Shown in pieces: positions 1 to 16,846 of a DNA stretch of 43,165 bases (its first letter is position 1; every line of letters begins with the position of its first letter). Position numbers and translations under genes: made by a program. Source of the stretch: a bacterium (GTDB lineage: Bacteria > Arandabacterota > Arandabacteria > Arandabacterales > JALGWA01). Under the pieces are notes generated by a model. The model was not told where the DNA came from. It saw nothing but the letters and a program-made list of their open reading frames with translations, and ran no database searches. The DNA is taken from NCBI GenBank assembly GCA_050125095.1, contig JASFEA010000009.1, positions 1-43,165 on the forward strand, in the 5' to 3' direction.

Positions 1-2
1 AA

Positions 3-488
3 GAGGGGCGATTTTCGTTTCCCCTGCCCCGGAGCTGGAGTGCTAAGTTCTTCGTAAACAAAGCGGGCTGTTACTTCATACCGGATATGCGGTGGTGCAA
101 GGGAGATCGGGACTATGAGGACCAGGACTTCGTGGCGCACTGCGGAGGCGGAGCCGCAATCAGCGGTTATGTTTGCGACATATTCGGACGCCCGGCGCCC
201 CACGTGCGCTTGGACGTTAAAGGGGAAGGCTATTATCCGCCGCCCTTCGACCGTACCGATTCCACCGGGTACTATGAGTTTACGAACCTGCCCAACGGGC
301 TTGAGCTGACGGTCAGACCTGAGGTTGATTACTCCATTCCCTACGAGGGATGCATACTCTGCCCGTCCGAGAGGGTGTATTACGATGTTGTCAAGGACCT
401 CACGAATCAGAACTTCACGATTTCCTGCCCCTCTCTCCCGGGCGGAGAGCCGGCCCCACTGTGCAATATCAGACCTGACCCCAATTAG
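3..488 (+). CDS. 5'-truncated protein with tandem carboxypeptidase-regulatory-like (prealbumin-like) beta domains
   Basis: Frame is open from position 3 (EGRFSFPLPRSW...) to TAG 486-488. Motifs ISGYVCD...RTDSTGYYEFTNLP...NQNF, with a similar preceding unit ending EDQDF. The last codons come from the repeat at 460-482. Confidence 0.6.
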   Translation, partial: EGRFSFPLPRSWSAKFFVNKAGCYFIPDMRWCKGDRDYEDQDFVAHCGGGAAISGYVCDIFGRPAPHVRLDVKGEGYYPPPFDRTDSTGYYEFTNLPNGLELTVRPEVDYSIPYEGCILCPSERVYYDVVKDLTNQNFTISCPSLPGGEPAPLCNIRPDPN

Positions 489-523
489 GTGTGCATTTCA
501 AGACCTGACCCCAACCTGACCCC
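460..523 (-). repeat. REP-like tandem doublet plus partial third copy (minus strand reads GGGGTCAGGTCTTGAAATGCACA)
   Basis: tgtgcaatatcagacctgacccc 460-482, 7-nt spacer, tgtgcatttcaagacctgacccc 490-512, acctgacccc 514-523. Period is 30 bp. 490-512 is the exact reverse complement of 20120-20142. Confidence 0.9.
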
Positions 524-524
524 A

Positions 525-2087
525 TCAGGCTATCTGGCGGACGCAGTCGATCACGGTGCCGTCCACCCACTTGATGGCGGCGACGACTTTGTCTTCGAAC
601 CCGGGACGGGCCGGCGGTCCGCCCACAATCTTCTCAACGTCGGCCTTGATGTCATGTATCGACCTTATGGGAAGGTCGGAGCCCTTGACGGCGTCTATCA
701 GGTCCCGGCGCGCGGGGTTGATGGCTATGCCCCGCTCGGTTATGACGACGTCGATGAGCTCACCGGGGCCCACGAGCGTCGTGACCTCGTCTACCAACAC
801 GGGGATCCTGTCCCTGAAAGATGGAATGGGGAGGATGGTGCACTTGGAGAAGAGGCAGTTCTGCCACCCGCCGATGCCGTGCAAGAGCAGGCCGTCCGAG
901 TGGGTGACCACATTGGCGTTGAAGTTGACGTCGACTTCGGTGGCTCCCAGCACAACGGCGTCCACCATGGTTCCGAAGAAACCCTTGCCGTTGTAATTGT
1001 AGCTCGTAAACGGGCTCGTCCAGACATGGCCGGGATTCTCCCGCATGGACCTAACGCCCTCGAGGTCGAAAGTCTGGCCGTCTAAGATGTAGTCGGTGAG
1101 GCCCTCTTCCAGCATCTCGACCAGGTACTGGGTGCTGCCGCCGCGCACGAAGCGCGCCTTGACGCCCGCCTCTTTCATCATCTCCTTAAGGTAGATTGCG
1201 AAAGCGAGCGCGGTGCCGCCGGCTCCCGCTTGGAAGGAGAAGCCCTCTTTCATGATGCCGGCGTCGCGCACGAAGCGCGCCGTGAGCTCGGCGATGAGCT
1301 GCCTGTCGGGGCTGCGGGTTATCTGCGTGGTGCCCGACACTATCTTCTCGGGATCGCCTATCCGGTCGACCTGGACCACGTAGTCGACGTAATTGCCCTG
1401 GATCTGCCAGGGAATGCACGGGAATGGAATGAGGTTGTCGGTTACCACGATGACCTTGTCGGCGTATTGCGAGTCGGCGAGCGCGAAGCCCAGCAGCCCG
1501 CACGCCGACGGGCCCGTGAGGGCGTTGGCGTTCCCGAAGGGGTCGGCCGTAGGCGCTGCGATTACGGCGATGTCTATGTGCACCTCGCCGTCCTGCACGG
1601 CCTGGTAGCGCCCGCCATGCGACCTCAAGACGCCCATGCCGCGCATCTTGCCCTCGGAGCAGTACCTTCCCAGAGGCCCGTTCATGCTGCCCTCTATGTG
1701 GTGGATCACGCCGTTGTCCATATGCTCTATGTTCCCGGCCTGGCACGGGAAGGACGCGCTCGGAAACCACATGAGGTCCTTAATGCCCATCTCGGCCGCG
1801 ACATCGAATGTCATGTTGGCGACGAAGTCGCCGTTCCGTAAGTGATGATGCGTGGATATGGTCATGCCGTCCTTGAGGCCGGCTGCCTCGAGCGCGGTGC
1901 GCAGGTCCTTTACCACCTTATTGCCGCTGGCCGGGTAGTCGGCCGCCGAGGCTATCGGGGGAGCCGCCTTGCGGCCGCCGGGCCTGTGCTTGCCGACGCC
2001 CTTGTAAGGCACCTGCTCTTTGCCGTTCACCACCGCGGGGACCTGCCTGCCGGCTGCGTTCTCAACGAGTTCGTATTCGCGTTTCAT
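525..2087 (-). CDS. citF: Citrate lyase alpha subunit-like CoA/ACP transferase
   Basis: 520 aa. Motifs GLKDGMTISTHHHLRNGD, RSHGGRYQAV, SFQAGAGG, LGATEVDVNFNANVVT, GIGGWQN, DVVITERGIAINPAR, WVDGTVID. ATGA overlap with the upstream gene. Confidence 0.92.
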   Translation of the reverse strand: MKREYELVENAAGRQVPAVVNGKEQVPYKGVGKHRPGGRKAAPPIASAADYPASGNKVVKDLRTALEAAGLKDGMTISTHHHLRNGDFVANMTFDVAAEMGIKDLMWFPSASFPCQAGNIEHMDNGVIHHIEGSMNGPLGRYCSEGKMRGMGVLRSHGGRYQAVQDGEVHIDIAVIAAPTADPFGNANALTGPSACGLLGFALADSQYADKVIVVTDNLIPFPCIPWQIQGNYVDYVVQVDRIGDPEKIVSGTTQITRSPDRQLIAELTARFVRDAGIMKEGFSFQAGAGGTALAFAIYLKEMMKEAGVKARFVRGGSTQYLVEMLEEGLTDYILDGQTFDLEGVRSMRENPGHVWTSPFTSYNYNGKGFFGTMVDAVVLGATEVDVNFNANVVTHSDGLLLHGIGGWQNCLFSKCTILPIPSFRDRIPVLVDEVTTLVGPGELIDVVITERGIAINPARRDLIDAVKGSDLPIRSIHDIKADVEKIVGGPPARPGFEDKVVAAIKWVDGTVIDCVRQIA

Positions 2088-3295
2088 TCCGAGTCCCTCC
2101 AGTCGGCATTGAGAACCCCCGTGGCGATGGCCATGTCAACCGTGTGGAGCGCGCGCTTCACGACGGGCGGGTCGATCATCTTGCTTCCGAGGGATACCAC
2201 CCCGAGGCCCTTCTTCTCGGCCTCTTCGAAAGCCAGCACTATCTTTTTCGCCCTCTCGACCTCGGCCTCCTCCGGGGCGAAGGCCTCGTGAATCACGCGG
2301 ATCTGGCGCGGGTGTATGCATCCCTTGCCGTCGAAGCCCAGCGACTTGGCTTCGATGACGCTCTTCCTGAGTCCCGCCATGTCGCTGACGTCGCTGAATA
2401 CCGTATCTATGGGCTGGAGCCCCGCCGCGCGGGCGGCGTTTACCACGGCGCTGCGTGCCCAGAAGCTCTCGCGCCCCTCGGGCGTGCGCCGGGTTCCTAT
2501 GTCGGCGGTGTAGTCCTCGAGCCCTATGGTGAGAGCCACGTTATTGGGAGAGGCGGAGGCGATTTCGTAGGCGTTTATGGCGCCCAGGCCCGACTCGATG
2601 ATGGGCATGAGATAGACCTCGTTAGCTACGCCGCGTTCTTTCCTTACGGTCTGAACCTTCTCGTCGATGGCCTTGACCTCGTCTCCTGTCTCGCACTTGG
2701 GAATGAGTATGATATGCACATTATGCGGCACGACGCTCTCGAGGTCCTCCAGCGCGAGCTCCCCCTGGTTGATGCGCACCATGCGCTCCGAGCCGAAGAA
2801 GTCGATCTGCCTCAGGGCGTTTCGCACGAGTATCCGGGCAGCGTCCTTCTCGGAAGGGTGGACGCTGTCCTCGAGATCGAGGATGACGCCATCGGGCTTG
2901 TGAAGCCCGGCATTGACCATGAAACGGGTCTCATTCCCGGGAAGGTAGAGCCGCGAGCGGCGCATGCGGTGGCGGTCGGTGCCATAGGTGCACCCGGACT
3001 GCATCTCCGGCAGAAACTCGCGCGTCTCGGACGGGTTCGCGCGCTTTACGGCTATCTCCAGCCTCGCCATTACCGTAAAGGGAAGCGCTCCCTGGTCCTC
3101 GACCTCGACGGCGGCATGCTCGATGCCGTAGAACCTGAGGCCGTCCTTGACGATATCGATGATGGACTGGCCGTACATGGACTCGACCTTGGACTTCATG
3201 GCTATTTCCACGCCACCCGAGTCCCTCGTCTCGATGCCGATGTAGCAGTCGGACCTTACGCCCTCACCGCGTCTCCCGCCTCTGCCCTCAGGCAT
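2084..3295 (-). CDS. citE: CitD (acyl-carrier gamma subunit)-CitE (citryl-CoA lyase beta subunit) fusion
   Basis: N-terminal ~90 aa resemble CitD (RSDCYI...SKVESMYG...VEDQGALPFTVMARLEIAVKRA). C-terminal CitE motifs RRSRLYLPG, LDLEDSV, RIN, IES, GLEDYTADIG, GKGCIHPRQI, MIDPPV. Confidence 0.9.
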   Translation of the reverse strand: MPEGRGGRRGEGVRSDCYIGIETRDSGGVEIAMKSKVESMYGQSIIDIVKDGLRFYGIEHAAVEVEDQGALPFTVMARLEIAVKRANPSETREFLPEMQSGCTYGTDRHRMRRSRLYLPGNETRFMVNAGLHKPDGVILDLEDSVHPSEKDAARILVRNALRQIDFFGSERMVRINQGELALEDLESVVPHNVHIILIPKCETGDEVKAIDEKVQTVRKERGVANEVYLMPIIESGLGAINAYEIASASPNNVALTIGLEDYTADIGTRRTPEGRESFWARSAVVNAARAAGLQPIDTVFSDVSDMAGLRKSVIEAKSLGFDGKGCIHPRQIRVIHEAFAPEEAEVERAKKIVLAFEEAEKKGLGVVSLGSKMIDPPVVKRALHTVDMAIATGVLNADWRDSE

Positions 3296-3785
3296 CGCCC
3301 ACCGTCCTTTCTTTGAGCTCTTTCCTGACGTAATTCAGAAGGCCGCCGGCGTCCCGGATCGCGAGTATCTCCGCTGGGAGCCCGGGGAAGGTGAACTCCT
3401 TGCCACCCACCTTCACCGTGCCCGCCTCGGGATCGACGTCGACTTCGTCGCCCTCCTTATAGGCGTCCACTGCGTCCGGGCACTCGATCAGGATCAGCCC
3501 CTGGTTGATGGCCGAGCGGTAGAATATGCGCGCGAAGCTCCGCGCTATCACGGCCTTGATGCCGAGCGCCTTGAGGCCCACGGTGGGCTGCTCCCTGGAG
3601 CTGCCGCAACCGAAATTGTCCCCCGCCAGAATGACGTCACCTTCGCCGGCCCTGCCGGCGAAGTCGGGGTCGAGGTCCTCGAAGAGATGGGGGATGATCT
3701 CCTCGGGCGTGCTCGCCGTATATGTGTACTTGCCCGGAAACAGCATGTCGGTGTTGATGCTGTCGCCGTATTTCCAAACGTTCAT
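3288..3785 (-). CDS. LeuD/HacB-type aconitase-family small (swivel) subunit
   Basis: VWKYGDSINTDMLFPGKY, NFGCGSSREQ, ARSFARIFYRSAINQG, GGLLNY. Confidence 0.9.
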   Translation of the reverse strand: MNVWKYGDSINTDMLFPGKYTYTASTPEEIIPHLFEDLDPDFAGRAGEGDVILAGDNFGCGSSREQPTVGLKALGIKAVIARSFARIFYRSAINQGLILIECPDAVDAYKEGDEVDVDPEAGTVKVGGKEFTFPGLPAEILAIRDAGGLLNYVRKELKERTVGDA

Positions 3786-3827
3786 TTCACACCGCCTTGT
3801 ATTGAATTGAGTGCATTATATACCCGA

Positions 3828-5087
3828 TCACGCGAATTCCGTCGGGTCTACGATTTTCCCTTCAAGCGCGCTGGCCGCGACGGTCGCGGGGCTCGCCAGA
3901 TATATCTCTGCGTCCTTGCAGCCCATGCGCCCCTTGAAGTTCCTGTTGGCCGTGCTCAGGCAAGTCTCACCCGGCGCCAGCACGCCCTGATGCGCGCCCA
4001 GGCAGGGTCCGCAGCCGGGCGGGAGAATGGTGGCGCCGGAGTCTATGAGCATGGGTATGGTGCCGTCGTTGACCGCTGCCAGAAGAATGTCCCTGCTGGC
4101 CGGCAGTACGAGAAGCCTCGAGCCCGGGCTCACATGCTTGCCGCGGAGCACCCGGGCCGCGACCTGGAGGTCGCCGAGCCGCCCGTTGGTGCACGTCCCG
4201 ATGAGAAACTGGTCTATCTGTACGTCGCCGAGCTCGGCGGCCGGGGCGACGTTGTCCACCTTATGAGGCTTTGCGACGACCGGGACTATCTCGGAGAGGT
4301 CATAGGTAAGCGTCTCGACGTACTCGGCGTCGTCGTCGGCCCAAACGGCCTCCCATTTGCCCACGGCGCCGATGCTCTCAAGGTATTTTTCGGTAACGCC
4401 GTCAACCGGGAACACCGCGTTCTTGGCGCCCATCTCGACTCCCATATTGGCGATCGTCATGCGGCTCTCGAAATCCAGAGCGGCCACGTTGCCGTGAAAC
4501 TCGACGGACATGTAGTTCGCGCCGCTCGAGCTCATGTCGCCTATTATGGTGAGCACCAGGTCCTTGGCCGAGACCGGGGGCCTGAGCTCGCCTTCGAGCA
4601 CTATCTTCATCGACAGCGGTACCTTAAACCAGCTCTTGCCGGTAAGCATTATTGCGGCCGCCTCCGTCCTGTCTATCCCGGTCGCGAAGGCGCCCACGGC
4701 CCCGTATGTACAAGTATGCGAGTCGCTTCCCACGATGAGGTCTCCCGGGAGGGCGTGCCCTTTAGCTATGAGCACCTCGTGGCAGATGCCCTCGCCGACG
4801 TCGTAGAAGTTCTTTATGCCGAACTTCTTCACGAACTCCCTTATTTTCTTGTGATTGGTCGCCGTCTTCTCGCTCGCCGCCGGGACCACGTGGTCTATTA
4901 CTATGACGGGAACGTCGGCGCTGGCCACGCCATAGGCGTCGAGATCGTCTCCGATCTTACCTATTATGGCCGCGGTGTTGTCATGCGTGAGAAGATGGTC
5001 GGGGCGCACCGTGACTATCTGGGTGGCCTCTACGCTGTCACGCCCGCTCTTTATGGCGAGCACTTTCTCTGCGAATGTCTTTCCCAT
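3828..5087 (-). CDS. LeuC/HacA-type aconitase-family large subunit (4Fe-4S)
   Basis: MGKTFAEKVL, THDNT, IDHVVP, GICHEV, GSDSHTCTYG, IGTCTNGR, PGCGPCLG, STANRNFKGRMG, YLASP. All canonical motifs are present. Confidence 0.92.
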   Translation of the reverse strand: MGKTFAEKVLAIKSGRDSVEATQIVTVRPDHLLTHDNTAAIIGKIGDDLDAYGVASADVPVIVIDHVVPAASEKTATNHKKIREFVKKFGIKNFYDVGEGICHEVLIAKGHALPGDLIVGSDSHTCTYGAVGAFATGIDRTEAAAIMLTGKSWFKVPLSMKIVLEGELRPPVSAKDLVLTIIGDMSSSGANYMSVEFHGNVAALDFESRMTIANMGVEMGAKNAVFPVDGVTEKYLESIGAVGKWEAVWADDDAEYVETLTYDLSEIVPVVAKPHKVDNVAPAAELGDVQIDQFLIGTCTNGRLGDLQVAARVLRGKHVSPGSRLLVLPASRDILLAAVNDGTIPMLIDSGATILPPGCGPCLGAHQGVLAPGETCLSTANRNFKGRMGCKDAEIYLASPATVAASALEGKIVDPTEFA

Positions 5088-5098
5088 GGTTATGCCCT

Positions 5099-6940
5099 CT
5101 ACTTGTTAAGAAGACCGCCGCGCCGGTAGATGTCCAGCTGGACCCGGGAGAAGGGCCTGACCTCGGCCTTCGCGCCGGTGGCCTCTTTGGTGACTTCTCC
5201 CTTCACGAAGTCCACGCTTATTATGTCGCCGTCCTTTAGATCGAGCGCGGACAGGCCTCCCACGACGATGGGCAGCGCGGCGTTGATGGCGTTCCTCTCG
5301 TAGATCGCGCCGAATGATTTGGCGATAACCGCGCTGACGCCCAGGCTCTTGAAGCAGTCCACTGCGTGCTGTCTCGACGAGCCGGCGCCGAAGTTCTCGC
5401 CGGTTACGACTATGTCGCCCGCCTGCACCTTCTTGGGGAAGTCCTCCCAGCCGGAGAGATTGCCGAAGCAGTGCTGCCCCATCTCGTCGATATCGGTTAC
5501 GGCGAGATGCCTGTTGTGATAGATCATGTCGGTGTCTATGTTGTCTTCGCCGACCATCCACACGCGGCCCTTGACCGTGGTGGGAGGGCCGGCCTTGGGC
5601 GGATAGGCCTTTGCTTTCTGCGCCGCGGCTTTCCGGGCGCCGCCTCCCGCCGCGGGCGCCTTCTCCGCGCCCGCCTCGGTCCGCGGCTCGATGCCCGCGT
5701 CCATTCTATCGGGCGCGACGATCATACCAGCAACTGCCGAGGCGGCGACCACGGCCGGCGAAGCGAGATATACATGTCCCTGCCCCTGCTTGCCGGGGAA
5801 GTTGCGGTTACCCGTGCTGACGGTCACTTCGCCCGGGCCGTTCTGCCCCACCTGGCCGGCCGCGCATCCCGCGCATCCCGCGTTGCCCAGCAGGGCGCCG
5901 GCCTTCTTGAAGGTCTCCACGATACCCTCCTCGAGACAGCGCTTCCAGATGCTGTCGGTCGCGGGGACTATCTTGAGTACGACGCCCGGAGCGACCGTGC
6001 GGCCGCTTAAGATCTCCGCGGCCATCTTCATGTCCTCATAGCGGCCGTCGGTGCATGAGCCGATAAAGGCCGAGTCGATCCTCGTACCCTCGACCTCGCT
6101 TACCGGCACCGCTTTCTCGGGGTTGCCGGGCAGGGATACCAGAGGCTTAACGCGGCTGATGTCGATGTTTATGTCCTTCTCGTACCGGGCGTCCGGGTCG
6201 GCCTTTACCATCTCATAAGTCTTGCCCGTGATCTCCTTAAGCTCGTCGATGACGGCCCGGTTGGGGGGGAAGAGGATGATGATGCCGCCCATCTCGGTCG
6301 CCATGGAAGCCACCGTGACGCGGTCTGAAACGTTCATCTCCTCCACGGCGTCGCCGTACATCTCGGCCGAATACCCGAGGAGACCTCTTGCGCCCAGGTT
6401 CCTTAAGAGCTCGAGCGTGATGTCCTTCGCCGTCACGCCCTTGGGGGCCTTGCCGCCCAGGAAGATGCGGACGGACGGGGGCACGCGGAACCATACTTTA
6501 CCCGCCGCGAAGGCGTACGCAATGTCCTGGTCGCCCATGCCCTGGCCGAAGGCGCCGATGGAGCCCAGGATATTGGCGTGCGAGTCGGTCGATACGAGGG
6601 TGCCGCCGCATCCTACAAGGCCCTCGTCTATGGCTATGTGCGTTCCTATTCCCGCGTCGATGTCGTATACCTTGATGCCGCTGGCGCGCGCGAACTGCCT
6701 TATGCGCTGCTGGTTCGCGGCGTATCTCTGGTCTGAGCCGGTGGGATTGCAGTCCAGGGTAAAGAAGGTGCGGCTCGCGTCGTCTATTCCCAGGCCGTTT
6801 TCCTCGATGTTTTTGACCACGTTGGCGCCTCCGAAATCGCGCGCCAGCCTGGCGTCGATCCTCATGTCCACTATGTCGCCCGGTTTGCAACTGGAATCCG
6901 TATGCGCCGATATTATCTTCTCGATCAGGGTAAGCCCCAT
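5099..6940 (-). CDS. Fused large+small subunit aconitase-family hydro-lyase with divergent active site
   Basis: LeuC-like part (TDSHAN, IGSCTDGR, AGCAGCAAG, STGNRNFPGKQG), an Ala/Lys/Pro linker, then a LeuD-like part (DNIDTDMIY, NFGAGSSRQHA, AKSFGAIYERNAIN). Confidence 0.88.
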   Translation of the reverse strand: MGLTLIEKIISAHTDSSCKPGDIVDMRIDARLARDFGGANVVKNIEENGLGIDDASRTFFTLDCNPTGSDQRYAANQQRIRQFARASGIKVYDIDAGIGTHIAIDEGLVGCGGTLVSTDSHANILGSIGAFGQGMGDQDIAYAFAAGKVWFRVPPSVRIFLGGKAPKGVTAKDITLELLRNLGARGLLGYSAEMYGDAVEEMNVSDRVTVASMATEMGGIIILFPPNRAVIDELKEITGKTYEMVKADPDARYEKDINIDISRVKPLVSLPGNPEKAVPVSEVEGTRIDSAFIGSCTDGRYEDMKMAAEILSGRTVAPGVVLKIVPATDSIWKRCLEEGIVETFKKAGALLGNAGCAGCAAGQVGQNGPGEVTVSTGNRNFPGKQGQGHVYLASPAVVAASAVAGMIVAPDRMDAGIEPRTEAGAEKAPAAGGGARKAAAQKAKAYPPKAGPPTTVKGRVWMVGEDNIDTDMIYHNRHLAVTDIDEMGQHCFGNLSGWEDFPKKVQAGDIVVTGENFGAGSSRQHAVDCFKSLGVSAVIAKSFGAIYERNAINAALPIVVGGLSALDLKDGDIISVDFVKGEVTKEATGAKAEVRPFSRVQLDIYRRGGLLNK

Positions 6941-7015
6941 CTCAACCTCCCGCGGAACCGGCTCTGCGCCGGCTCCCGTGCTCTTTAACCACTCATGTCC
7001 CTCCGGCCAGCCGGC

Positions 7016-8203
7016 TCACTTAAGATTGGCGATAACTGCGTCGGTGACCTGCGTCGTGGTCGCCGCGCCCTTCTTGATGACGTCGGGGCCGCCGGGGAGC
7101 TTCATCATGTCGTATGTTCTGACCTCGCCCTGCTCGATCACCGCGGCGATGGCGCCGCGAATCCTGTTTGCCCTGTCCGCCTCTCCTATATGGTCGAGCA
7201 TCAGGCAGGCGCTCAAAATCATGGCCATGGGGTTTACAATAGGCGGGTCGAGGGCCTCGTACTTGGGAGCCGAACCGTGCGTGGGCTCGAATATGGCGCA
7301 TGTCTCGCCGATATTTGCGCTGCACGCGAAGCCGAGCCCGCCAACGAGGCCGGCGAAGCCGTCGGATACGATGTCGCCGAACATATTGCCGCTCACGATG
7401 GCCCCGTAGTCCTCCGGGTTCTTGGTAAGCCACATCATCTGGGCGTCTATGTTGGTGTTCCAGAGCTCTATTTCGGGGTAGTCCTTCTGTATGGTTCTGC
7501 CCGTCTCGAGCATCATGCCGGAAGTCTCGCGTATGACGTTGGGCTTCTCGCATACGGTCACCGACTTGTAGCCCTTCTTTCTGGCGTATTCGAAAGCCGC
7601 GGTGACGATTCTGCGGCAGGCTTTGCGCGTGAATATGCGCGTCGATACAGCAAGGTCCTCGCCCGGCGTGTCCTTGAAGGCCGCCATCTTGGGATGCGTC
7701 TCGAGAGCTTTCCTCACCTCCGGCGGCGGGTTGGTCCACTCGACGCCGGCGTAGAGGCCTTCCGTGTTCTGGCGGAATATGGCCACGTCGACCATGGGCT
7801 CTTCTATGCCGCCGTCGGCGCCTCTTCTTATGAAGTTCAAGGGATTGCCCTTGAACGCCCGGCACGGCCTCAGGCAAATGTCGAGGTTGAAGTGCTGCCT
7901 CAGGCCCACGATGGGGCTGTAATAAACGTAGCCCTTGTCCTTAAGTCCGGGTGCCAGCTCCTTGGCCGCCTCCGTCTTGGGCTTGGATGTGATGGCCCCG
8001 AAGAGCCCCAGGCGGTGCTCGGCCAGCACGTCCAGCGTTCTCTGGGGCAGGGGATTGCCCTCTTTTACCCAGAACTCCCAGCCGATGTCGGCATGGATGT
8101 ACTCGGCTTCGAATCCAACGGCATCGAGAACTCTTATCGCCTCGGGGAGAACCACCTTGCCGATGCCGTCACCTGGCATGGACACTACCTTACGACCGGG
8201 CAT
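7016..8203 (-). CDS. Isocitrate/isopropylmalate/homoisocitrate dehydrogenase family enzyme
   Basis: PGDGIG, GLFGAITSKP, YSPIVGLRQ...LRP, RQNTEGLY, KPNVI, NIDA, NMFGDIVSD, FEPTHGSAPKY, NPMAMILS. SD GGAGG upstream. Confidence 0.92.
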   Translation of the reverse strand: MPGRKVVSMPGDGIGKVVLPEAIRVLDAVGFEAEYIHADIGWEFWVKEGNPLPQRTLDVLAEHRLGLFGAITSKPKTEAAKELAPGLKDKGYVYYSPIVGLRQHFNLDICLRPCRAFKGNPLNFIRRGADGGIEEPMVDVAIFRQNTEGLYAGVEWTNPPPEVRKALETHPKMAAFKDTPGEDLAVSTRIFTRKACRRIVTAAFEYARKKGYKSVTVCEKPNVIRETSGMMLETGRTIQKDYPEIELWNTNIDAQMMWLTKNPEDYGAIVSGNMFGDIVSDGFAGLVGGLGFACSANIGETCAIFEPTHGSAPKYEALDPPIVNPMAMILSACLMLDHIGEADRANRIRGAIAAVIEQGEVRTYDMMKLPGGPDVIKKGAATTTQVTDAVIANLK

Positions 8204-8313
8204 AGCACTACCTCCGAATGAAAGGGCTTAGTTGAGACCCAGGTTGAAATCCCACGCCGCATGAGGGTGGGTCCGACCCCCAACGCCGGGGCCGGCTAAC
8301 CTTGAACCACTCT

Positions 8314-8341
8314 ATTCTATAGTAGTATTATTTGGTGTCAA
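8314..8341 (-). promoter_or_regulatory. Sigma70-type promoter for the dehydrogenase/aconitase/lyase operon
   Basis: Minus strand TTGACA (8341-8336), 16 nt, TAGAAT (8319-8314), in an AT-rich patch about 110 nt upstream of the start at 8203. Confidence 0.6.
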
Positions 8342-8382
8342 GCCATCTCGGCCCGATTTCTTCCATATGGAGGAGGATTCTC

Positions 8383-9198
8383 TTGATAGAGACAGTCGAG
8401 GGCGATGAAGCCCTTCGCATATTCGCCGGCCATTATGCCATAGCGCCCCGGCCCGCGGATACGCAGCCTTCGCGCGGCCTCCTCGAGGCCGTGGTCAGGG
8501 ACTTCTCCAGGCTGCCGTATGAGAACATAAGCAAGATAATAAAGAGCGCCGGCCACGGGGATCCGGCGGAGTCATTCCGGCTTCCCGTGGAGGTCGTCAC
8601 CGATCACGTGGAAAGGGGCTTCGGCGGGACGTGTTTTTCCCTGACCTTTCTTCTGGAGCGCATGCTGCGGGCCCTTGGTTTCGACTGCCACAAGGTGATG
8701 GCGCATATGCATATGGGTGAGAACGTGCACTGCCTCGTGGTCGTAGACCACGGCGGCCGTCGCTTCATGATAGACCCGGGGTACGCCCTGTACGCGGTGA
8801 TCGAACTTATCGGTCGCGGGCGGACCGCCGCGCGCTGCCCGCATGCCCTTGTGGAGGTCGCGCGGGATCATGGCGGCTGCTATAATCTCTACACCGTCGA
8901 TGCCGCGGGCAGGAAGTGGAGATACCGCTTCGCAGACGTCCCGGCCGCGGACGATGAATTCGAGCGGCACTGGATCAGGTCCTTCGACATGCCGACCTTG
9001 AGGAACGTCTGTCTCGGGAGGATAACCGAGAAAGGGCATCTCTATTTGAGAAAGGACTACTTCAAGTTCGCATCTCTCGAGAATATCAGCAAGCGCAGTT
9101 TCAAGACGGGCATTGAGAGGGTCATCGAGGAGGAATTCGGTATCGACAGCAAGTGGGTTGATATGGCCCGGGACGTACTCAAGACGCGGCGGAGGTAG
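8383..9198 (+). CDS. Arylamine N-acetyltransferase family protein
   Basis: PYENI, GGTCF (catalytic Cys), HCLVVV...IDPGY (His, Asp). Start moved to TTG 8383, which follows SD GGAGGAGG at 8369-8376. Confidence 0.8.
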   Translation: MIETVEGDEALRIFAGHYAIAPRPADTQPSRGLLEAVVRDFSRLPYENISKIIKSAGHGDPAESFRLPVEVVTDHVERGFGGTCFSLTFLLERMLRALGFDCHKVMAHMHMGENVHCLVVVDHGGRRFMIDPGYALYAVIELIGRGRTAARCPHALVEVARDHGGCYNLYTVDAAGRKWRYRFADVPAADDEFERHWIRSFDMPTLRNVCLGRITEKGHLYLRKDYFKFASLENISKRSFKTGIERVIEEEFGIDSKWVDMARDVLKTRRR

Positions 9199-9359
9199 GG
9201 GAGAGACGGGGCGGCAGCGGGGAACAAGTAAGGCGGATGCAGGGAAGGAGCATGGATGAGGTAAGCAAGAGGCAGGCACAAGTTGGGCAAGGAGTAAGCG
9301 CGAGGCCGGCAAAAGGTGGACACGAGCCAAGCAAGGGGTAAGGAGAGAGCAAGGACAAG
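9195..9359 (+). repeat. Degenerate 11-bp tandem repeat, 15 units, purine-rich
   Basis: Gap-free 11-nt register: gtaggggagag acggggcggca gcggggaacaa gtaaggcggat gcagggaagga gcatggatgag gtaagcaagag gcaggcacaag ttgggcaagga gtaagcgcgag gccggcaaaag gtggacacgag ccaagcaaggg gtaaggagaga gcaaggacaag. Confidence 0.75.
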
Positions 9360-9361
9360 AT

Positions 9362-9940
9362 ATGGGATTTCTCGGCAGGCCACAGCCCGTGCAGCTTGTG
9401 ATGGGCGTCATATACGGGGATGAGGGCTTCCTGGAGGAGGCCGCCACCGGGCTTGCAGGCGAGCTGGGCGAGATCGATTTGAGGTCGGAGGCTTTCGAAT
9501 TCGACGTCACCGACTACTATCAGGATGAAATGGGCCCCGGTCTCAAGCGCGTTTTCTTAAGCTTCAAAAATCTCATAGACCCCGGCGATATAGTCGATAT
9601 CAAGCTTATGGCCGCCGGGCTCGAGCAGGAGATGAGCCGGGAGGGGAAACGTACGGTCAATCTCGACCCGGGCTACATGGATTTCAACAAGCTCGTTCTG
9701 GTCTCGGCCAAATTCCTCGCGCAGAAGATATATCTGGCGAAAGGTGTTTATGCCGACCCCACAATCTATTACGATAAGGGCTGGAGGGACTACGAGTGGG
9801 CGTTTCCCGACTTCAGGAACGGGAGGTACGGCGGCTTTTTCAGTGAAGTAAGGAACCTGTACAAGGCAAAGATGAGGAATATGGAAAACCCGGCGCCGGG
9901 CGGTAGTGACCGGGAGCCGGCATCAGGAGAAGAGGATTGA
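9362..9940 (+). CDS. DUF4416 family protein
   Basis: TDYYQDEMG.GLKRVF, RTVNLDPGY, KIYLAKGVYAD, EWAFPDFR are typical of this family. Confidence 0.8.
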   Translation: MGFLGRPQPVQLVMGVIYGDEGFLEEAATGLAGELGEIDLRSEAFEFDVTDYYQDEMGPGLKRVFLSFKNLIDPGDIVDIKLMAAGLEQEMSREGKRTVNLDPGYMDFNKLVLVSAKFLAQKIYLAKGVYADPTIYYDKGWRDYEWAFPDFRNGRYGGFFSEVRNLYKAKMRNMENPAPGGSDREPASGEED

Positions 9941-11607
9941 CCGAGAAGACGAATACAGAAGTGATGATAGAGGTCGAGGGCTCGGGTAAGATATCGGTGG
10001 CGCCGGAGACAAAGCCCATCGACATAATAGACCGGCTCTCCTACAAGAGCGAACATGCCATAGTCGCGGCTCGCTTCAATAACAAGGTAGTGCGGCTTTC
10101 ATACCCCCTCACAACTGACGGCAAGCTCAGCTTCGTAACCCTGGACACTTCCGACGGGATGAGCGTCTACAGACGTAGCCTGGCGTTCGTTATGATACGC
10201 GCCGCGCGGGAGCTCTTCCCGGGACAGCGCGTCTATATCAGGCATTCGCTCAGCAAGGGGTATTACTGCGAGATCGGCATGGATCCCACCCTGAGCATGG
10301 CGGACCTTGAGAAGCTCGAGGCCAGAATGAGGGAGATCATCGCGGCCGACGAGCCCTTCGTGCGGCTCGAAGTGCCGGTCGAGGAGGCGCTCAGGACATT
10401 CGAGGAAGACGGCCAGGTAGACAAGGTCGGCATTTTGAGGTACCGGAAGGAACCCATGGTCGCCATCTACAAGCTCGGCGAGTTCACCGACTACTTCTAC
10501 GGTTGTCTAGCTCCGAGCACCGGCTATGCCGACAAGTTCGAGATCAGGGACTACCCTCCGGGTTTCATTCTGAGGTTTCCGCTCTATCAGGATCCCACTA
10601 CCATACCAGAATTCCACGAGCAGAAGAAGATGGCGGAGGTCTTCAGAGAATACGTGAGATGGGGCCAGATCCTGGGCGTGGACAAGGTGGGCGACATAAA
10701 CGAGATAGTGGAACGCGGCGAGACGGCCGAGATGATAAGGGTGGCGGAGGCGCTGCATGAGAAGAAAATGGCCCATTTCGCCGACGACATCGCTTCCAAG
10801 CTCACGCGCCCCAGGCTGATCCTCATTTCGGGGCCGTCGGGCTCGGGCAAGACCACTTTCTCGAAGCGGCTGGCCATACAGATGAGAGTGAACGGGCTCA
10901 AGAACATAACCGTTTCTCTGGACAACTACTTCCTCGACCGGGAGGAGACGCCCCGGGACGAGACGGGTGAATACGATTTCGAGGCGCCGGAGGCCATTGA
11001 TATCAATCTCCTCAACTCGCAGCTCCTCGATCTCTTCGCGGGCAAGGAAGTGGACGTGCCCAGGTTCAGCTTCCGCTACGGCAAGCGCGTGGGTTACCGC
11101 AAGATGAAGCTGGAGCCCGGCCAGATTCTCATACTGGAAGGCATACATGCCATCAATCCCGCGCTCACGCCGTCGATTCCGGCCATAATGAAGTTCAAGG
11201 TTTACGTCAGCGCGCTGTCCCAGCTCAACATCGACTACCATAACAGGGTTCCCACCACGGATTCGCGGAAGCTGCGCCGGATAGTGCGCGACAATCTCTT
11301 CCGGGGCTATAACGCTATCGACACTCTTTCCAGGTGGGCATCGGTAAGGAGGGGAGAGGACCAGTACATCTTCCCTTATCAGGAAGGTGCCGACGCCATG
11401 TTCAACTCGTCGCTTCCCTATGAGCTCTGCGTGATTAAAGAACGCGCGGAGGAACTGCTGTCCAAGGTCACCAATGAACATGAGGAATACGCGGAGGCGC
11501 GCCGCCTTCTACGCTTCCTCTCTTATTTCCTGCCCATTCCCCCGCGGGAGGTGCCCCGAAATTCCATCTTGAGGGAATTTATCGGTGGTAGTATCTTCAA
11601 GTATTGA
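9937..11607 (+). CDS. Nucleoside (uridine) kinase family protein with N-terminal TGS/ThrRS-like domains
   Basis: N-terminus resembles ThrRS (YRRSLAFVM, SLSKGYYCE, LEARMREII, DYFYG). P-loop GPSGSGKTT, SLDNYF, EGIHAIN, RRIVRD. TTGA overlap with the upstream gene. Confidence 0.88.
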   Translation: MTEKTNTEVMIEVEGSGKISVAPETKPIDIIDRLSYKSEHAIVAARFNNKVVRLSYPLTTDGKLSFVTLDTSDGMSVYRRSLAFVMIRAARELFPGQRVYIRHSLSKGYYCEIGMDPTLSMADLEKLEARMREIIAADEPFVRLEVPVEEALRTFEEDGQVDKVGILRYRKEPMVAIYKLGEFTDYFYGCLAPSTGYADKFEIRDYPPGFILRFPLYQDPTTIPEFHEQKKMAEVFREYVRWGQILGVDKVGDINEIVERGETAEMIRVAEALHEKKMAHFADDIASKLTRPRLILISGPSGSGKTTFSKRLAIQMRVNGLKNITVSLDNYFLDREETPRDETGEYDFEAPEAIDINLLNSQLLDLFAGKEVDVPRFSFRYGKRVGYRKMKLEPGQILILEGIHAINPALTPSIPAIMKFKVYVSALSQLNIDYHNRVPTTDSRKLRRIVRDNLFRGYNAIDTLSRWASVRRGEDQYIFPYQEGADAMFNSSLPYELCVIKERAEELLSKVTNEHEEYAEARRLLRFLSYFLPIPPREVPRNSILREFIGGSIFKY

Positions 11608-11628
11608 CCACAATAAGCGGGAACGAGC

Positions 11629-12894
11629 ATGGACGATAAGCGAAAAGACCTCATCACAGCCGGGCTGTACCTCGGCGACGTGACGCTCGTCCTGGCTGCG
11701 TTCGCCAGGGAGCTTCCTTCATATGTGGAGGGCTTCGAACTCGAGAGGGTCATCCCCGATGCCGGTGAACTCGAGCCAGCAAGGCGCGAAGTCGAGACGG
11801 TGGTTCCCGGGCGCGATGAGCTCACCGCCGTTCCCCCTGAGCTCCTCAGGAAGGTTCTCGATACGGCGATAGAGAAGGGCAGGTTCCATTCGGCGTCCCG
11901 ATGCCTCTCGCTTCTCGGGGAACGCGACGCTTACGTGGATCGATTCATAAAAAGCGCCGGTGAGAAACTCAAGGCCGGAGACACAGTCGGCGCCGCGCAC
12001 GATATCTCCGTTGCTTCCAATCTCGAGTCGGACACCGGCTTCCCGCTCTTCCAGTACTCCGGGCCCGAGCTGCATTTCGGCTGCACGACTGCGCCGGAGG
12101 GTTGCCTGACGAGGGCTCCGGCGGAGGAAGCCATAGCGAGAGCGCTCAATTACCTCCTCGAAGGCGAGAAGGTGCTGGCCTTCGCAGACAACCTCGGACC
12201 CGATGAGAAGAAGAGCCTGCTCCCGCATGTCGCCATGGAGAGGGATCCGGGCTTAAGGGAATTCTACGCGGCCCTGTCCAATACCAACAAGGTTCTGGGC
12301 GAGATCGAGACCGGTGATATCGAGAGCCTGAGGGCGGACATCAGGCGCGCGGCCGATGTAATGGCGGCCCTGGCTGATTTCCTGAGGAACGCCTCGCCGG
12401 CCGACGAAGCCTCGGGCGCCGCGCTCGACCGGGCGAGGAGAATGGCGGACGGCTTCGGCAAGGACTTCGGGGGCATAGACTCGCTCATAAGCGACTTCCA
12501 GCTGAGGCGCATTAAGCGGCGCATAGGCAACGTCCTGGATTCCGAGGACGATCTCAGGGCCGCGGCCGAAGCCGTAAAGCGCGGCGGCAGCGAAGATGCC
12601 CTGGCTTCCGCGACCGCGCTTGTGGAGGAGTTCCGCGCCAGGGGCATACCGGATAAGATCGACGATATAGAGGCCAGGCTTGTGGGGATCCAGGTGGCTC
12701 TGCTGGGCCGGTCGGTTCACTCGCAGGAGCACTGGCAATATCTCAGGGAGCTCGCATTCAAGTACCCCGCGAGCCCCGTCATGTGCTGCATAAGGAAGCT
12801 GAACGACCGCTACATGGTTGTCCCGAGGTGGGACGGCGAGATAACTCGGGTATTCAGGGACTTCTTCGAAAGGGCCTCCGCGGACCCCGCCTGA
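11629..12894 (+). CDS. Hypothetical helical/coiled-coil protein
   Basis: 421-aa ORF 21 nt after the kinase, with genome-typical codon use. Motifs HFGC...GC and HSQEHWQYLRELAFKYP..PVMCC. Family not recognised. Confidence 0.75.
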   Translation: MDDKRKDLITAGLYLGDVTLVLAAFARELPSYVEGFELERVIPDAGELEPARREVETVVPGRDELTAVPPELLRKVLDTAIEKGRFHSASRCLSLLGERDAYVDRFIKSAGEKLKAGDTVGAAHDISVASNLESDTGFPLFQYSGPELHFGCTTAPEGCLTRAPAEEAIARALNYLLEGEKVLAFADNLGPDEKKSLLPHVAMERDPGLREFYAALSNTNKVLGEIETGDIESLRADIRRAADVMAALADFLRNASPADEASGAALDRARRMADGFGKDFGGIDSLISDFQLRRIKRRIGNVLDSEDDLRAAAEAVKRGGSEDALASATALVEEFRARGIPDKIDDIEARLVGIQVALLGRSVHSQEHWQYLRELAFKYPASPVMCCIRKLNDRYMVVPRWDGEITRVFRDFFERASADPA

Positions 12895-12904
12895 GCCTGC
12901 GTGC

Positions 12905-15256: not shown

Positions 15257-15258
15257 GA

Positions 15259-16665
15259 CTATTCCTCACCGGCTTCTCTGCCTTTGCCTCCATCCAGCGC
15301 GTCGGCTTTCTTCCGCATAGCGGAGAGATTGGTGAGCAGCTTCTTGAGGTCCTCGCCGCCTAAAGACTCGACGATGGTGGGCAGCTGTGCGAGAACTCTG
15401 GCGACCTCTCCCGTGACGCGCGACGCCCCCAGCGACCCGTCTCCCGAGCCGCCGACCACCACTATCTTGTCGACCTTTGACAGGGGTTCGGCGACGGCCC
15501 TCGCGAGCTCGGGTAGCGACTCTATGAACATCTGGTAAATGGCCGCCTGGTTGTACTGGCTCCAGGACTCGGCCTTCTTCTTCATGCCTTCGGCTTCGGC
15601 CAGGATCCTGGCCCTCAGTATATCGGCCTCGGCGCTTCCCTCGAGCTTCTTGGCGACGGCGCGGCCCTTGGCCTCTATCTCGGAGCGGTAGGACTCGGCC
15701 TCCGCGGGGCGCTTGACGGTGGCTTCAAGCTCCTTCTCCTTGCGCTTAATCTCCATCTCCTCGAGCTCGACGGCCTTCTTCTTCTCGACTATCCTGACGT
15801 CGGCCTCTTCGGCCTTGATCTGCTTGTTCATCTTGTGGCGCTCGAGCTCGTAGGAGAGGTCGGCCTTGGCGCGCTTCTCATTGACGGCGGCCTGGTACTC
15901 GGCGCGCTTGGATTCGAAGTCCCGCGTTACCTCCGCGACTTCGGTCTCGGCCCTGAGGCGCGCGATGTCGCCTTCCTTGCGCGCTTCGGCTGCCTTGATT
16001 GCGGCGAACTTCTCGGCCTCGGCCTCTGCTATTGCGGCCTCTCCCTTGATCCTGGCGATCTCGGGCCTTCCGAGCGCTTCGAGATAGCCCTGGGTGTCCG
16101 TGATCTCGGTAAGCGAGAAGGAGATTATGGAAAGGCCCATCCAGGCCAGATCCTTGCCGGCCTCCTCCTCGACCATATCGGCGAATTCCTTGCGGTTCCT
16201 GTATATCTCCTCCACCGTCATGGTGCCGATGGTGGAGCGGACGTGGCCCTCTATTATCTGAAGCGACACCTGCCGCATGCCCTCGAGTCCCTCGCCGAGG
16301 AATTGCTCGGCGGCCTGGCGGATGTCGTAGTCGGTGCTCCTGACCCTTACCTGGGCTGTTCCCTTGACGACCACGGGTATGCCCTTCGAAGTCATAATCT
16401 CGGGAGTCTTGACGTCAATCGTGAAGACCTCGAGCGAGAGGACCTCGGCTGTCTCTACGAACGGCAGAACGAAGGTGCCTCCGCCTATATGGGTTCGGTA
16501 GCCTATTTTCTTGGTGGTCCCGTCAGGGTCTGTGATGGTGCGTTTTCTGCCGCCCGAGATGATGAGCACTTCATTGGGGCCGACTTTGCGATACTGCTTC
16601 CAGAGAGCCAGAATGAGGATAGCCACTGCAGCCGCGGCAATGATCACTACATAGTACCAAGGCAT
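15259..16665 (-). CDS. Flotillin/SPFH domain membrane protein
   Basis: N-terminal TM helix, YRKVGPNEVLIISG, AAEQFLG, GYLEALG, Ala/Glu-rich coiled coil, AEPLSKVDKIVVV. SD GGAGG. Confidence 0.92.
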   Translation of the reverse strand: MPWYYVVIIAAAAVAILILALWKQYRKVGPNEVLIISGGRKRTITDPDGTTKKIGYRTHIGGGTFVLPFVETAEVLSLEVFTIDVKTPEIMTSKGIPVVVKGTAQVRVRSTDYDIRQAAEQFLGEGLEGMRQVSLQIIEGHVRSTIGTMTVEEIYRNRKEFADMVEEEAGKDLAWMGLSIISFSLTEITDTQGYLEALGRPEIARIKGEAAIAEAEAEKFAAIKAAEARKEGDIARLRAETEVAEVTRDFESKRAEYQAAVNEKRAKADLSYELERHKMNKQIKAEEADVRIVEKKKAVELEEMEIKRKEKELEATVKRPAEAESYRSEIEAKGRAVAKKLEGSAEADILRARILAEAEGMKKKAESWSQYNQAAIYQMFIESLPELARAVAEPLSKVDKIVVVGGSGDGSLGASRVTGEVARVLAQLPTIVESLGGEDLKKLLTNLSAMRKKADALDGGKGREAGEE

Positions 16666-16710
16666 ACTATTACCCTCCCATGAGTACGTGAATTGTCATC
16701 CAGACGTTGG

Positions 16711-16739
16711 ATTATAGGCAGAATAACAGGCCTTGGCAA
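16711..16739 (-). promoter_or_regulatory. Sigma70-type promoter for flotillin-aminotransferase
   Basis: Minus strand TTGCCA (16739-16734), 17 nt, TATAAT (16716-16711). Confidence 0.75.
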
Positions 16740-16775
16740 CCGAAATAGTCGGTGCTCCGAAATCGAATTCCGGTG

Positions 16776-16804
16776 TTGCCATTCGCGCCTTTTGTTACTA
16801 TAAT
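16776..16804 (+). promoter_or_regulatory. Sigma70-type promoter for pckA
   Basis: TTGCCA (16776-16781), 17 nt, TATAAT (16799-16804). Confidence 0.75.
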
Positions 16805-16846
16805 GGCGGGCTGGAAGCGGGGCGGAACTACAGGCTTGGAGGAGTC

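Follow-up and report, generated by a model that had tools for sequence, protein, structure and literature searches.

The citrate lyase (CitDEF, EC 4.1.3.6) known from Klebsiella, E. coli and lactic acid bacteria combines a transferase (CitF), a lyase (CitE) and an acyl carrier whose serine is conserved (CitD), and it is accompanied by CitG and CitX, which serve the prosthetic group, and by CitC, which serves acetylation. We analyzed a 43,165-nt stretch of DNA from a bacterium of the phylum Arandabacterota (assembly GCA_050125095.1, contig JASFEA010000009.1, positions 1 to 43,165; this whole stretch is called the window), in which parts of these three types are encoded in one six-gene operon, linked to genes of the Iso_dh and aconitase families and not to citrate carriers. 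The operon probably encodes a pathway in which a 2-oxo-dicarboxylic acid is shortened or lengthened by one carbon, with homocitrate as the most plausible intermediate.

Other described systems resemble parts of this arrangement. The upper alpha-aminoadipate pathway of fungi, Thermus and archaea likewise employs two dehydratases and a beta-decarboxylating dehydrogenase (PMC3556520). Its fungal and Thermus homoaconitases catalyze only the homoaconitate/homoisocitrate half of the reaction, while an aconitase performs the other half (PMC3556520); the view in the initial annotation of the window, that a second aconitase is needed beside a homoaconitase, agrees with this. In Caldithrix a locus with Hcs and LysWXZYJ was reported, the remaining pathway genes being "scattered" (PMC5317091). 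For Ignavibacterium album, the genome paper of 2012 regarded IALB_1146 (CitF) and IALB_1147 (a CitE-CitD fusion) as a citrate lyase independent of ATP and suggested citrate fermentation or an unconventional reverse tricarboxylic acid (TCA) cycle as its role (PMC3362086). The passages of that paper on the lyase treat the pair alone and do not mention the lack of CitG and CitX; the terms "aconit" and "isocitrate dehydrogenase" do not occur in its main text, so that account leaves out the neighboring dehydrogenase, the hydratase scoring above the homoaconitase cut-off and the PrpD-like gene (PMC3362086). The methylcitrate cycle (PrpD with aconitase, or AcnD with PrpF) uses a dedicated dehydratase for a stereoisomer that aconitase cannot handle, followed by rehydration by an aconitase-family enzyme. 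The Hydrogenobacter-type reverse TCA cycle has citryl-CoA synthetase together with citryl-CoA lyase. The CitDE-CitF pair has thus already been described as a citrate lyase in I. album, and the word "new" needs qualifying when it is applied to the pathway. Literature searches for "homocitrate lyase" gave no match at all. Among the matches listed there was none in which homoaconitase is linked to citrate lyase or PrpD in bacteria, none for a homocitrate route of 2-oxoadipate catabolism, and none for homoaconit* in connection with the carrier taxa.

The six ORFs (open reading frames) are co-oriented on the minus strand and occupy positions 525-8203. They are transcribed in the order dehydrogenase, AcnFus (a fused LeuC+LeuD-type protein), LeuC, LeuD, CitDE (a CitD-CitE fusion) and CitF (Table 1), with intergenic distances of 75, 11, 42, -8 and -4 nt. 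Two junctions overlap, and LeuD, CitDE and CitF are joined by translational coupling. Coordinates, domains and overlapping junctions all agree with the initial annotation, which had described six tightly packed genes and two overlaps. It had also found neither leuA or homocitrate synthase nor citC, citG or citX in the window. This holds across the whole genome, which is 91% complete: no LeuA, CimA or homocitrate synthase was detected, and CitG, CitX and CitC gave 0 matches each. Enzymes acting only as ordinary LeuBCD and citrate lyase, with the latter three genes elsewhere in the genome, had been named as a finding that would speak against the proposal. The sole HMGL-like protein of this genome is the alpha subunit of an oxaloacetate decarboxylase (OadA) of the sodium-pumping type. 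Among 20 other carrier genomes, HMGL-like proteins were found in 8, while 12 have none.

We compared the lyase with its closest relatives, using the NCBIfam equivalog cut-offs as a function-specific test for the proteins of the window. CitDE contains a CitD-like acyl-carrier domain (residues ~1-95) and a CitE-like C-C lyase domain (~108-395); in CitDEF, by contrast, the carrier is a free gamma subunit and not an N-terminal extension of CitE. Each of the three lyase parts stays below its equivalog cut-off. The best model for the CitE domain is citE (TIGR01588, 290.2 against a cut-off of 443.4; 291.4 for the Ignavibacterium orthologue), the carrier part scores 60.7 with citD (cut-off 63.5), and CitF, the only one in the whole genome, scores 486.5 with TIGR01584 (cut-off 501.45) and 454.7 with the Pfam CitF model (cut-off 27). 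The CitE part shares with CLYBL, at aligned positions, a glutamate, an E-D pair and an I-D-P motif. The I. album lyase belongs to the same CitF/CitE-CitD fusion family, and in a metagenome-assembled genome (MAG) of that species (locus L028) CitDE is 64% identical to that of the window. The carrier motif is V-R-S15-D-C17. Its serine is present in 72 of 73 orthologues and presumably corresponds to Ser14 of Klebsiella CitD; a cysteine two residues further on, which distinguishes these carriers from CitDEF, is also present in 72/73. CitG and CitX were found in none of the 20 other carrier genomes, some of which are at chromosome level, and both are thus missing in 21/21 genomes when the window's own is included. 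The fused carrier would thus have to work, and to get its thiol, without CitG and CitX; it may act through the cysteine or through a different cofactor. By analogy with CitDEF, acyl exchange on an acetyl carrier followed by C-C cleavage would be expected.

Further, we surveyed CitDE in one genome per species. There were 597 pattern matches, 374 of which encode CitDE relatives, and the locus counts given below refer to the best 80 of these 374 loci. The relatives come from Eisenbacteria, KSB1, Ignavibacteria, Calditrichota, Gemmatimonadota, Planctomycetota and other groups, and among the MAG labels of the best 80 loci are also Melioribacter, Caldithrix and Zhuqueibacterota. Ignavibacterium album, Melioribacter roseus and Caldithrix abyssi are carriers that can be cultivated. 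CitF lies 3' of CitDE in 74/80 loci. Four of the six exceptions end less than 2 kb from a contig end; CitF is truly missing near CitDE in L022 and L063. The full six-gene set recurs in L002, L003, L004 and L007, so that the conservation for which the initial annotation had proposed a neighborhood survey is found, and the gene arrangement is not a matter of chance. Many Eisenbacteria-labelled loci have the order AcnFus-CitDE-CitF. In L009, L011, L015 and L027 the dehydrogenase gene is located 6 to 9 kb downstream of AcnFus-CitDE-CitF; LeuC follows it directly in the first three, and L027 stops inside the dehydrogenase gene. In eighteen loci of the Ignavibacteria type, CitDE and CitF are accompanied by the dehydrogenase, a fused hydratase and a PrpD-family gene, and in most of them also by an HD-domain gene. 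AcnFus was found in 29/80 loci and the PrpD-like gene in 27/80, never both in one locus, and whichever is present usually stands directly beside CitDE.

The HD-domain protein, 177 aa long, is encoded inside 23/80 clusters between dehydrogenase and hydratase (for example L028, 5409-5942). In the genome of the window, a copy with 51% identity is encoded away from the operon (C50:11557-12099). We looked for a prosthetic-group enzyme beside it and rejected this idea, as the C50 neighbors are only DUF4438, a subtilase and a phosphoenolpyruvate (PEP)-utilising enzyme. Two conserved small neighbors (c11 and c13) had no informative family matches.

Counts at the level of whole genomes were made in 28 other CitDE-carrying genomes. 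An orthologue of the dehydrogenase is present in 28/28 (57-78% identity). Fused AcnFus (at least 60% identity) was detected in 14 genomes, its split form (48-52%) in two, and the PrpD-like protein (at least 76%) in ten. At least one of them is present in 26/28 genomes; both occur only in G012, and neither occurs in G023 or G024. Of the 44 loci in which 8 kb or more of upstream sequence is available, 9 have CitDE-CitF with no other cluster gene nearby. Since the genome-level counts find the other parts, these are located elsewhere in the genome where the pair stands alone. Two genes of these genomes look broken, namely the PrpD-like gene at G013:C1:943184-944607, with five TAA stops, and AcnFus at G012:C9:1625547-1627341, which is split in two frames. 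They may be assembly errors or decaying copies.

CitDE is present in 16/18 genomes of the window's own small phylum. Within this phylum the other parts were looked for in the two CitDE-less genomes, G044 and G045 (each 96% complete), and both keep the dehydrogenase next to a split AcnFus. In G044, which belongs to the same class and has neither CitDE nor CitF, the cluster (L098, G044:C1:176000-195000, 8195-18541 on the minus strand) also holds a LeuCD pair. Its order is an unknown 515-aa protein, two succinyl-CoA-ligase-like genes, citryl-CoA lyase (270 bits, cut-off 245), LeuC, LeuD, dehydrogenase and split AcnFus. The citryl-CoA-synthetase-like subunits encoded by the two ligase-like genes score below the succinyl-CoA ligase cut-offs. 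The dehydrogenase and hydratases carry the signatures of the window (SPIV, GKYTY, HNAHLA). The families of the Hydrogenobacter-type enzymes thus replace CitDE-CitF in G044; unlike in that cycle, their genes are clustered with those of LeuCD/HacAB-type and AksF-like proteins, and the same genome encodes separate candidates for aconitase and Iso_dh. Altogether, non-orthologous replacement is observed at three positions: AcnFus against the PrpD-like protein, split LeuCD against a fused Lys4-type hydratase, and CitDE-CitF against citryl-CoA synthetase/lyase-like genes. The parts have been swapped at three positions, yet the whole set is kept, and therefore a single pathway is strongly evidenced. 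We estimate the probability that the genes form one pathway for a tricarboxylate other than citrate at approximately 75%. The initial annotation had gone as far as a complete module for 2-oxoacid shortening or elongation; its general scheme is well supported, while the C7 substrate and the direction are unproven.

We next considered which substrate the enzymes would act on, beginning with the dehydrogenase. Its top NCBIfam matches are AksF homoisocitrate dehydrogenases (AksF 263.5 against a cut-off of 500; AksF2 257.4 against 540), and its nearest named relatives are AksF and the Thermus homoisocitrate dehydrogenases. The motif YSPIVGLRQ (S-P-I-V) is invariant in all full-length clustered orthologues aligned. 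In isocitrate dehydrogenases S-x-N binds the gamma-carboxylate of isocitrate; here S-P-I stands in its place, and the best isocitrate dehydrogenase model gave 235.9 against 510. Among the proteins of the operon, scores with the leucine-type models were also below the cut-offs (leuB 160.7 against 353; LEU2 447.8 against 610.65). Neither LeuBCD equivalog scores nor a LeuA partner were found, which speaks against leucine biosynthesis. A look-up in the ESM Atlas returned generic Iso_dh clusters only. We propose, from sequence comparison, that the product of the first gene is a homoisocitrate-type beta-decarboxylating dehydrogenase.

The LeuC and LeuD proteins point the same way. LeuC exceeds the subfamily cut-off of hacA_fam (522 bits) and reaches no equivalog (TIGR00139 295 against 530; HacA_Meth 438 against 550), and LeuD scores 143-145 with the homoaconitase models (cut-offs 229-230) and 159.8 with leud (cut-off 245.85). 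The three cysteine ligands of the [4Fe-4S] cluster are present in LeuC (GTCTNG, GCGPC) and kept in its orthologues. The small-subunit loop sets substrate specificity in these hydro-lyases; in solved Methanocaldococcus small subunits it reads YLRT in homoaconitase and YLVY in isopropylmalate/citramalate isomerase. In LeuD of the window the loop is N-T-D-M-L-F-P-G-K-Y-T-Y, whose PGKYTY has the form G-(K/R)-x-T-Y of the Lys4 clade. The loop (NTDMLFPGKYTY) is also found in those Ignavibacteria hydratases that score above the homoaconitase cut-off and in an aphelid protein described below. The fused hydratase of the Ignavibacteria clusters obtained 884.5 bits with the homoaconitase equivalog TIGR00139 (cut-off 529.9), and its PGAP name is homoaconitase. 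PGKYTY was found in 17/17 Ignavibacteria-type hydratases; exact KYTY is present in 9 of 44 long representatives, and other members show G-(K/R)-x-T-Y. We propose that LeuC/LeuD is a cis-homoaconitate/homoisocitrate hydratase.

Among representatives at 50% identity we found P0245, a 724-aa protein of the aphelid Amoeboaphelidium protococcarum, which is 57% identical to the Ignavibacteria hydratase L028 6030-8009 and has the same loop as the latter (N-T-D-G-I-Y-P-G-K-Y-T-Y). In a homologue search with the Ignavibacteria hydratase, only Ignavibacteria orthologues were among the best 120 matches listed. The resemblance suggests that bacterial and opisthokont Lys4-type enzymes are closely akin, possibly with gene transfer between them.

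AcnFus passes only subfamily-level models (PRK00402, 405.7 bits; hacA_fam, 389.6), and its names in public databases are generic only. It keeps the cysteine ligands of the [4Fe-4S] cluster (GSCTDG, GCAGC), as do its orthologues, and its small-domain loop, H-N-R-H-L-A-V-T, is unlike both the YLRT and the YLVY types. We propose that AcnFus is a dehydratase of a tertiary alcohol, converting a homocitrate-type substrate to a cis-alkene. The PrpD-like protein that replaces it reaches 88.6 bits against the PrpD cut-off of 575 and is nearest to cis-aconitate decarboxylases (~90 bits). The Ignavibacteria form of the cluster thus resembles the methylcitrate cycle in using a PrpD-family protein as dehydratase. 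It differs in this low score and in that no PrpB, PrpC or PrpF gene is present in the clusters mapped; moreover, methylisocitrate is a tertiary alcohol and, on chemical grounds, cannot be a substrate of the dehydrogenase.

We considered a self-contained pathway of five steps, 2-oxoadipate + CO2 + NAD(P)H <-> 2-oxoglutarate + acetate, in which homocitrate is the tricarboxylate. We hold this assignment at slightly below even odds. The dehydrogenase would interconvert 2-oxoadipate and CO2 with homoisocitrate, the LeuC/LeuD pair with its Lys4-type loop would interconvert homoisocitrate and cis-homoaconitate, and AcnFus would interconvert cis-homoaconitate and homocitrate. CitF would then put homocitrate on the acetylated carrier domain with release of acetate, and CitE would split the bound homocitryl thioester to 2-oxoglutarate, by which the acetyl carrier is restored. 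We favor homocitrate because the counterpart hydratase of the Ignavibacteria exceeds the homoaconitase cut-off, the same loop is present in LeuD and S-x-N is missing from the dehydrogenase. Further points in favor are the polar or basic loops of both hydratases, the need for a second enzyme beside a homoaconitase, the lack of HMGL-like proteins in most carriers, the Hcs and LysWXZYJ locus of Caldithrix together with the cluster orthologues of the Caldithrix MAG, and an aminotransferase-family gene next to the dehydrogenase in three loci. The likeness to the alpha-aminoadipate pathway lies in the loop of LeuD and in the dehydrogenase, which is nearest to homoisocitrate dehydrogenases. The differences are that most carrier genomes have no homocitrate synthase, that the C-C step belongs to an enzyme of the citrate-lyase or citryl-CoA-lyase type, probably with opposite stereochemistry, and that the first dehydratase is a dedicated AcnFus or PrpD-like protein and not the aconitase of the TCA cycle.

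The stereochemistry may explain why a second dehydratase is kept. The arm of citrate that citrate lyase takes off is the pro-S one, and the same holds for citryl-CoA lyase. Homocitrate synthase makes (R)-homocitrate, and ordinary aconitase dehydrates its acetate-derived arm. With the longer arm in the pro-R position, the substrate of the lyase would be (S)-homocitrate. The housekeeping aconitase may thus be unable to serve the third step, because a si-face enzyme of the citrate-lyase type should handle the enantiomer opposite to that of homocitrate synthase; in a lyase-linked pathway a dehydratase of its own would therefore have to act on that enantiomer before a standard homoaconitase takes over. 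An enantiomer-specific dehydratase would account for the position of AcnFus or the PrpD-like gene beside CitDE, and for their interchange, and prochiral citrate would have no need of them. The substrate, this stereochemical reason and the direction are all inferred.

The window's genome has, besides the operon, its own citrate synthase, a PRK07229 aconitase (985 bits) and a second Iso_dh protein (C30), a candidate isocitrate dehydrogenase whose S-A-N motif is characteristic of such enzymes. This check of the genome had been suggested by the initial annotation, and its result makes the operon set an extra one. A separate aconitase of ~760 aa was also found in 5/5 Ignavibacteria genomes tested, and a further Iso_dh protein in 3/5. 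These genes bear on the strongest alternative, in which the operon is a dedicated reductive branch, 2-oxoglutarate + CO2 -> isocitrate -> citrate -> oxaloacetate + acetate, serving as an ATP-free segment of an "unconventional reverse TCA" cycle or in fermentation of glutamate to acetate and pyruvate, with each hydratase performing half of the aconitase reaction. We consider it unlikely, although several observations would suit it. The lyase parts are nearest to citrate lyase (citE as best model, CitF at 486.5 against 501.45), the lyase genes of the CitDE-less variant are known from reverse TCA cycles, and the genome of the window has the alpha subunit of a sodium-pumping oxaloacetate decarboxylase. 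In KSB1 loci, malic enzyme, which stands between LeuC-LeuD and CitDE-CitF, could decarboxylate oxaloacetate. Citrate fermentation or the unconventional cycle was also what the I. album paper proposed for the pair (PMC3362086). However, a single aconitase is enough for citrate, whereas two distinct dehydratases are retained (one AcnFus or PrpD-like, the other LeuCD or Lys4-type); the same genomes already encode a standard aconitase as well as another Iso_dh protein; the dehydrogenase has S-P-I and not S-x-N; and the Ignavibacteria hydratase passes the homoaconitase model, not an aconitase model.

Improbable, in our estimate, is the same pathway acting on another hydroxy-di- or tricarboxylate, such as (S)-citramalate with 2-oxobutyrate, longer homologues such as 2-oxopimelate, as in the Aks system of methanogens, or an imported acid of plant or microbial origin. 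AksF enzymes, the best matches of the dehydrogenase, act on several chain lengths, the CitE family includes citramalyl-CoA and malyl-CoA lyases, the affinity of the PrpD-like partner to cis-aconitate decarboxylases leaves its chemistry open, and transporters of three families adjoin related clusters. Nevertheless, alkyl-malate substrates are disfavored because both hydratase loops are polar or basic (KYTYT, NRHLAVT) and not hydrophobic like the YLVY of isopropylmalate/citramalate isomerase; the Lys4-type loop and the model score point to the C7 compound; and tertiary alcohols of the methylcitrate cycle, judged from chemistry, cannot be Iso_dh substrates. It is very improbable that the operon joins two unrelated functions, citrate fermentation through an ordinary citrate lyase and synthesis of leucine, isoleucine or lysine by enzymes of the LeuBCD type: each gene alone would be annotated so, CitDE-CitF does stand alone in some loci, and in the Melioribacter and Caldithrix MAGs with LysX and a homocitrate-synthase-like gene hydratase and dehydrogenase may serve lysine synthesis, but the window's genome has neither LeuA, CimA or homocitrate synthase nor LysX above cut-off, 12/20 carrier genomes have no HMGL-like protein, the parts co-occur in 26/28 genomes even when unlinked, LeuD, CitDE and CitF are translationally coupled, the CitG and CitX that an ordinary citrate lyase needs are missing in 21/21 genomes, and in G044 the lyase module was swapped inside the same cluster.

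Several observations weigh against the homocitrate pathway. None of the six operon proteins (0/6) reaches a function-specific cut-off. The nearest to it is CitF, within 15 bits of the cut-off for the citrate-lyase alpha subunit, and the lyase parts are most like citrate lyase. The dehydrogenase remains below the homoisocitrate dehydrogenase equivalog score, and LeuC and LeuD below that of homoaconitase. Arg85 of Thermus homoisocitrate dehydrogenase binds the distal carboxylate; in the alignment with this enzyme (chain 3asj) the dehydrogenase of the window has Val at the position. LeuC is only ~37% identical to the fused Lys4-type protein, and the loop argument concerns a short motif. The KSB1 arrangement (LeuC-LeuD, malic enzyme, CitDE-CitF) suits a lyase producing oxaloacetate, that is, a citrate lyase. 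The transporters beside related clusters belong to different families (CstA, EamA, TRAP) and name no substrate. Neither a riboswitch nor a regulator ties the operon to lysine, and a path leading from lysine to 2-aminoadipate was not detected in the genome of the window, where saccharopine dehydrogenase is below cut-off. The gene of the kynurenine/2-aminoadipate aminotransferase family, in itself a point for homocitrate, is located directly upstream of the dehydrogenase in 3/80 loci (L009, L015 and L027), and the best solved relatives of its product are Pyrococcus PH0207 and the human kynurenine/2-aminoadipate and Thermus 2-aminoadipate aminotransferases; this adjacency is confined to one lineage, as the three loci are 75-90% identical.

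CstA, among these transporters, occurs in some loci of the Ignavibacteria type. In a Gemmatimonadota-labelled MAG (L100, G026:C1, 11835-15737, plus strand) a TRAP (tripartite ATP-independent periplasmic) transporter, comprising DctP, a DctQ-sized protein and DctM, is encoded together with an unknown 301-aa protein directly 3' of a cluster of LeuCD, dehydrogenase and split AcnFus.

We also analyzed markers of lysine metabolism. LysX exceeds its cut-off in only 2/29 genomes, and not in that of the window. The two carriers are a Melioribacter MAG (G005:C137:37260-39242) and a Caldithrix MAG (G007:C5:13095-15292), each with a homocitrate-synthase-like gene beside LysX, so that G005 and G007 have both the synthase route and the lyase cluster; in the Caldithrix MAG LysX occurs together with the orthologues of the cluster. 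Other lysine markers were rejected as discriminators: lysA is over the cut-off in 15/21 genomes and saccharopine dehydrogenase, over it in 19/21, is ambiguous, at least one of its matches adjoining a LysA-like decarboxylase, as in polyamine genes. The AADAT-like genes of the window's genome (C33, C86) have neighborhoods without lysine-catabolic context.

As to direction, the reaction acetate + 2-oxoacid + NAD+ -> longer 2-oxoacid + CO2 + NADH is near equilibrium according to rough textbook free energies, and therefore either direction would be possible on this rough estimate. For the homocitrate pathway we favor cleavage, that is, an oxygen-independent conversion of lysine-derived 2-oxoadipate to 2-oxoglutarate in peptide-degrading bacteria. 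The carriers are peptide degraders, LysX is limited to 2/29 genomes, transporters adjoin several clusters, and an ATP-spending variant that would yield acetyl-CoA exists in G044, all of which argue for this direction. More tentatively, and with considerable doubt, we suggest a widespread, oxygen-independent and CoA-free chain shortening, in which lysine-derived 2-oxoadipate would be converted to 2-oxoglutarate and acetate via unnatural (S)-homocitrate, with a carrier without the CitG/CitX prosthetic group and a lyase interchangeable with an ATP-dependent synthetase/lyase pair that would yield acetyl-CoA.

Table 1. Genes of the operon and elements of its upstream region (positions in the window).
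Feature	Position	Strand	Description
Iso_dh-family dehydrogenase	7016-8203	-	395 aa, PF00180 251 bits
AcnFus, fused LeuC+LeuD-type (aconitase-family) protein	5099-6940	-	613 aa, PF00330 + PF00694
LeuC/HacA-type large subunit	3828-5087	-	419 aa, PF00330 320 bits
LeuD/HacB-type small subunit	3288-3785	-	165 aa, TIGR02087 175 bits
CitD-CitE fusion (CitDE)	2084-3295	-	403 aa, PF06857 61 bits + PF03328 177 bits
CitF, alpha subunit type	525-2087	-	520 aa, PF04223 455 bits
Promoter-like site TTGACA-16-TAGAAT	8341-8314	-	11/12 consensus matches, consensus match only
Operon 5' leader	8204-8313	-	between promoter-like site and first start codon

The operon has a divergent neighbor upstream and a convergent one downstream. 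The promoter-like site lies ~110 nt 5' of the first start codon and is the best of five sites in 1-8600, where shuffled sequence averaged 2.6 sites. An Rfam scan of the window and five related loci gave no family at the gathering score and hence no riboswitch, for lysine or otherwise. At 466-525, where CitF and the neighboring ORF converge, "agacctgacccca" and "cctgacccca" each occur three times within ~60 nt, which looks like a short direct repeat in a terminator region. Further away, 12905-15256 on the minus strand encodes a 783-aa protein, of which the first ~390 residues are of the aspartate-aminotransferase type (432 bits, below cut-off) and the C-terminal half has no Pfam match. The initial annotation had supposed that the pathway feeds a nearby PckA. 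We did not find support for this, as the gene for the PEP-carboxykinase-like protein is outside the operon, ~8.5 kb away and on the other strand (16733-18727, plus), and its product, at 664 aa unusually long, scores 298.9 against a family cut-off of 369.

In summary, if homocitrate is indeed the substrate, the operon would explain how anaerobic and facultative protein degraders, Ignavibacteria, Calditrichota, KSB1, Eisenbacteria and Gemmatimonadota among them, bring 2-oxoadipate to a central metabolite with neither oxygen-dependent reactions nor the chemistry of glutaryl-CoA. The frequent annotation as "citrate lyase", from which an unconventional reverse TCA cycle has been argued, would then be corrected, and the operon would give functions to an uncharacterised family of fused aconitases and to a divergent PrpD family. 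Whichever the substrate, a citrate-lyase-type carrier free of CitG and CitX is a biochemical question in its own right, and three cultivated carriers exist.

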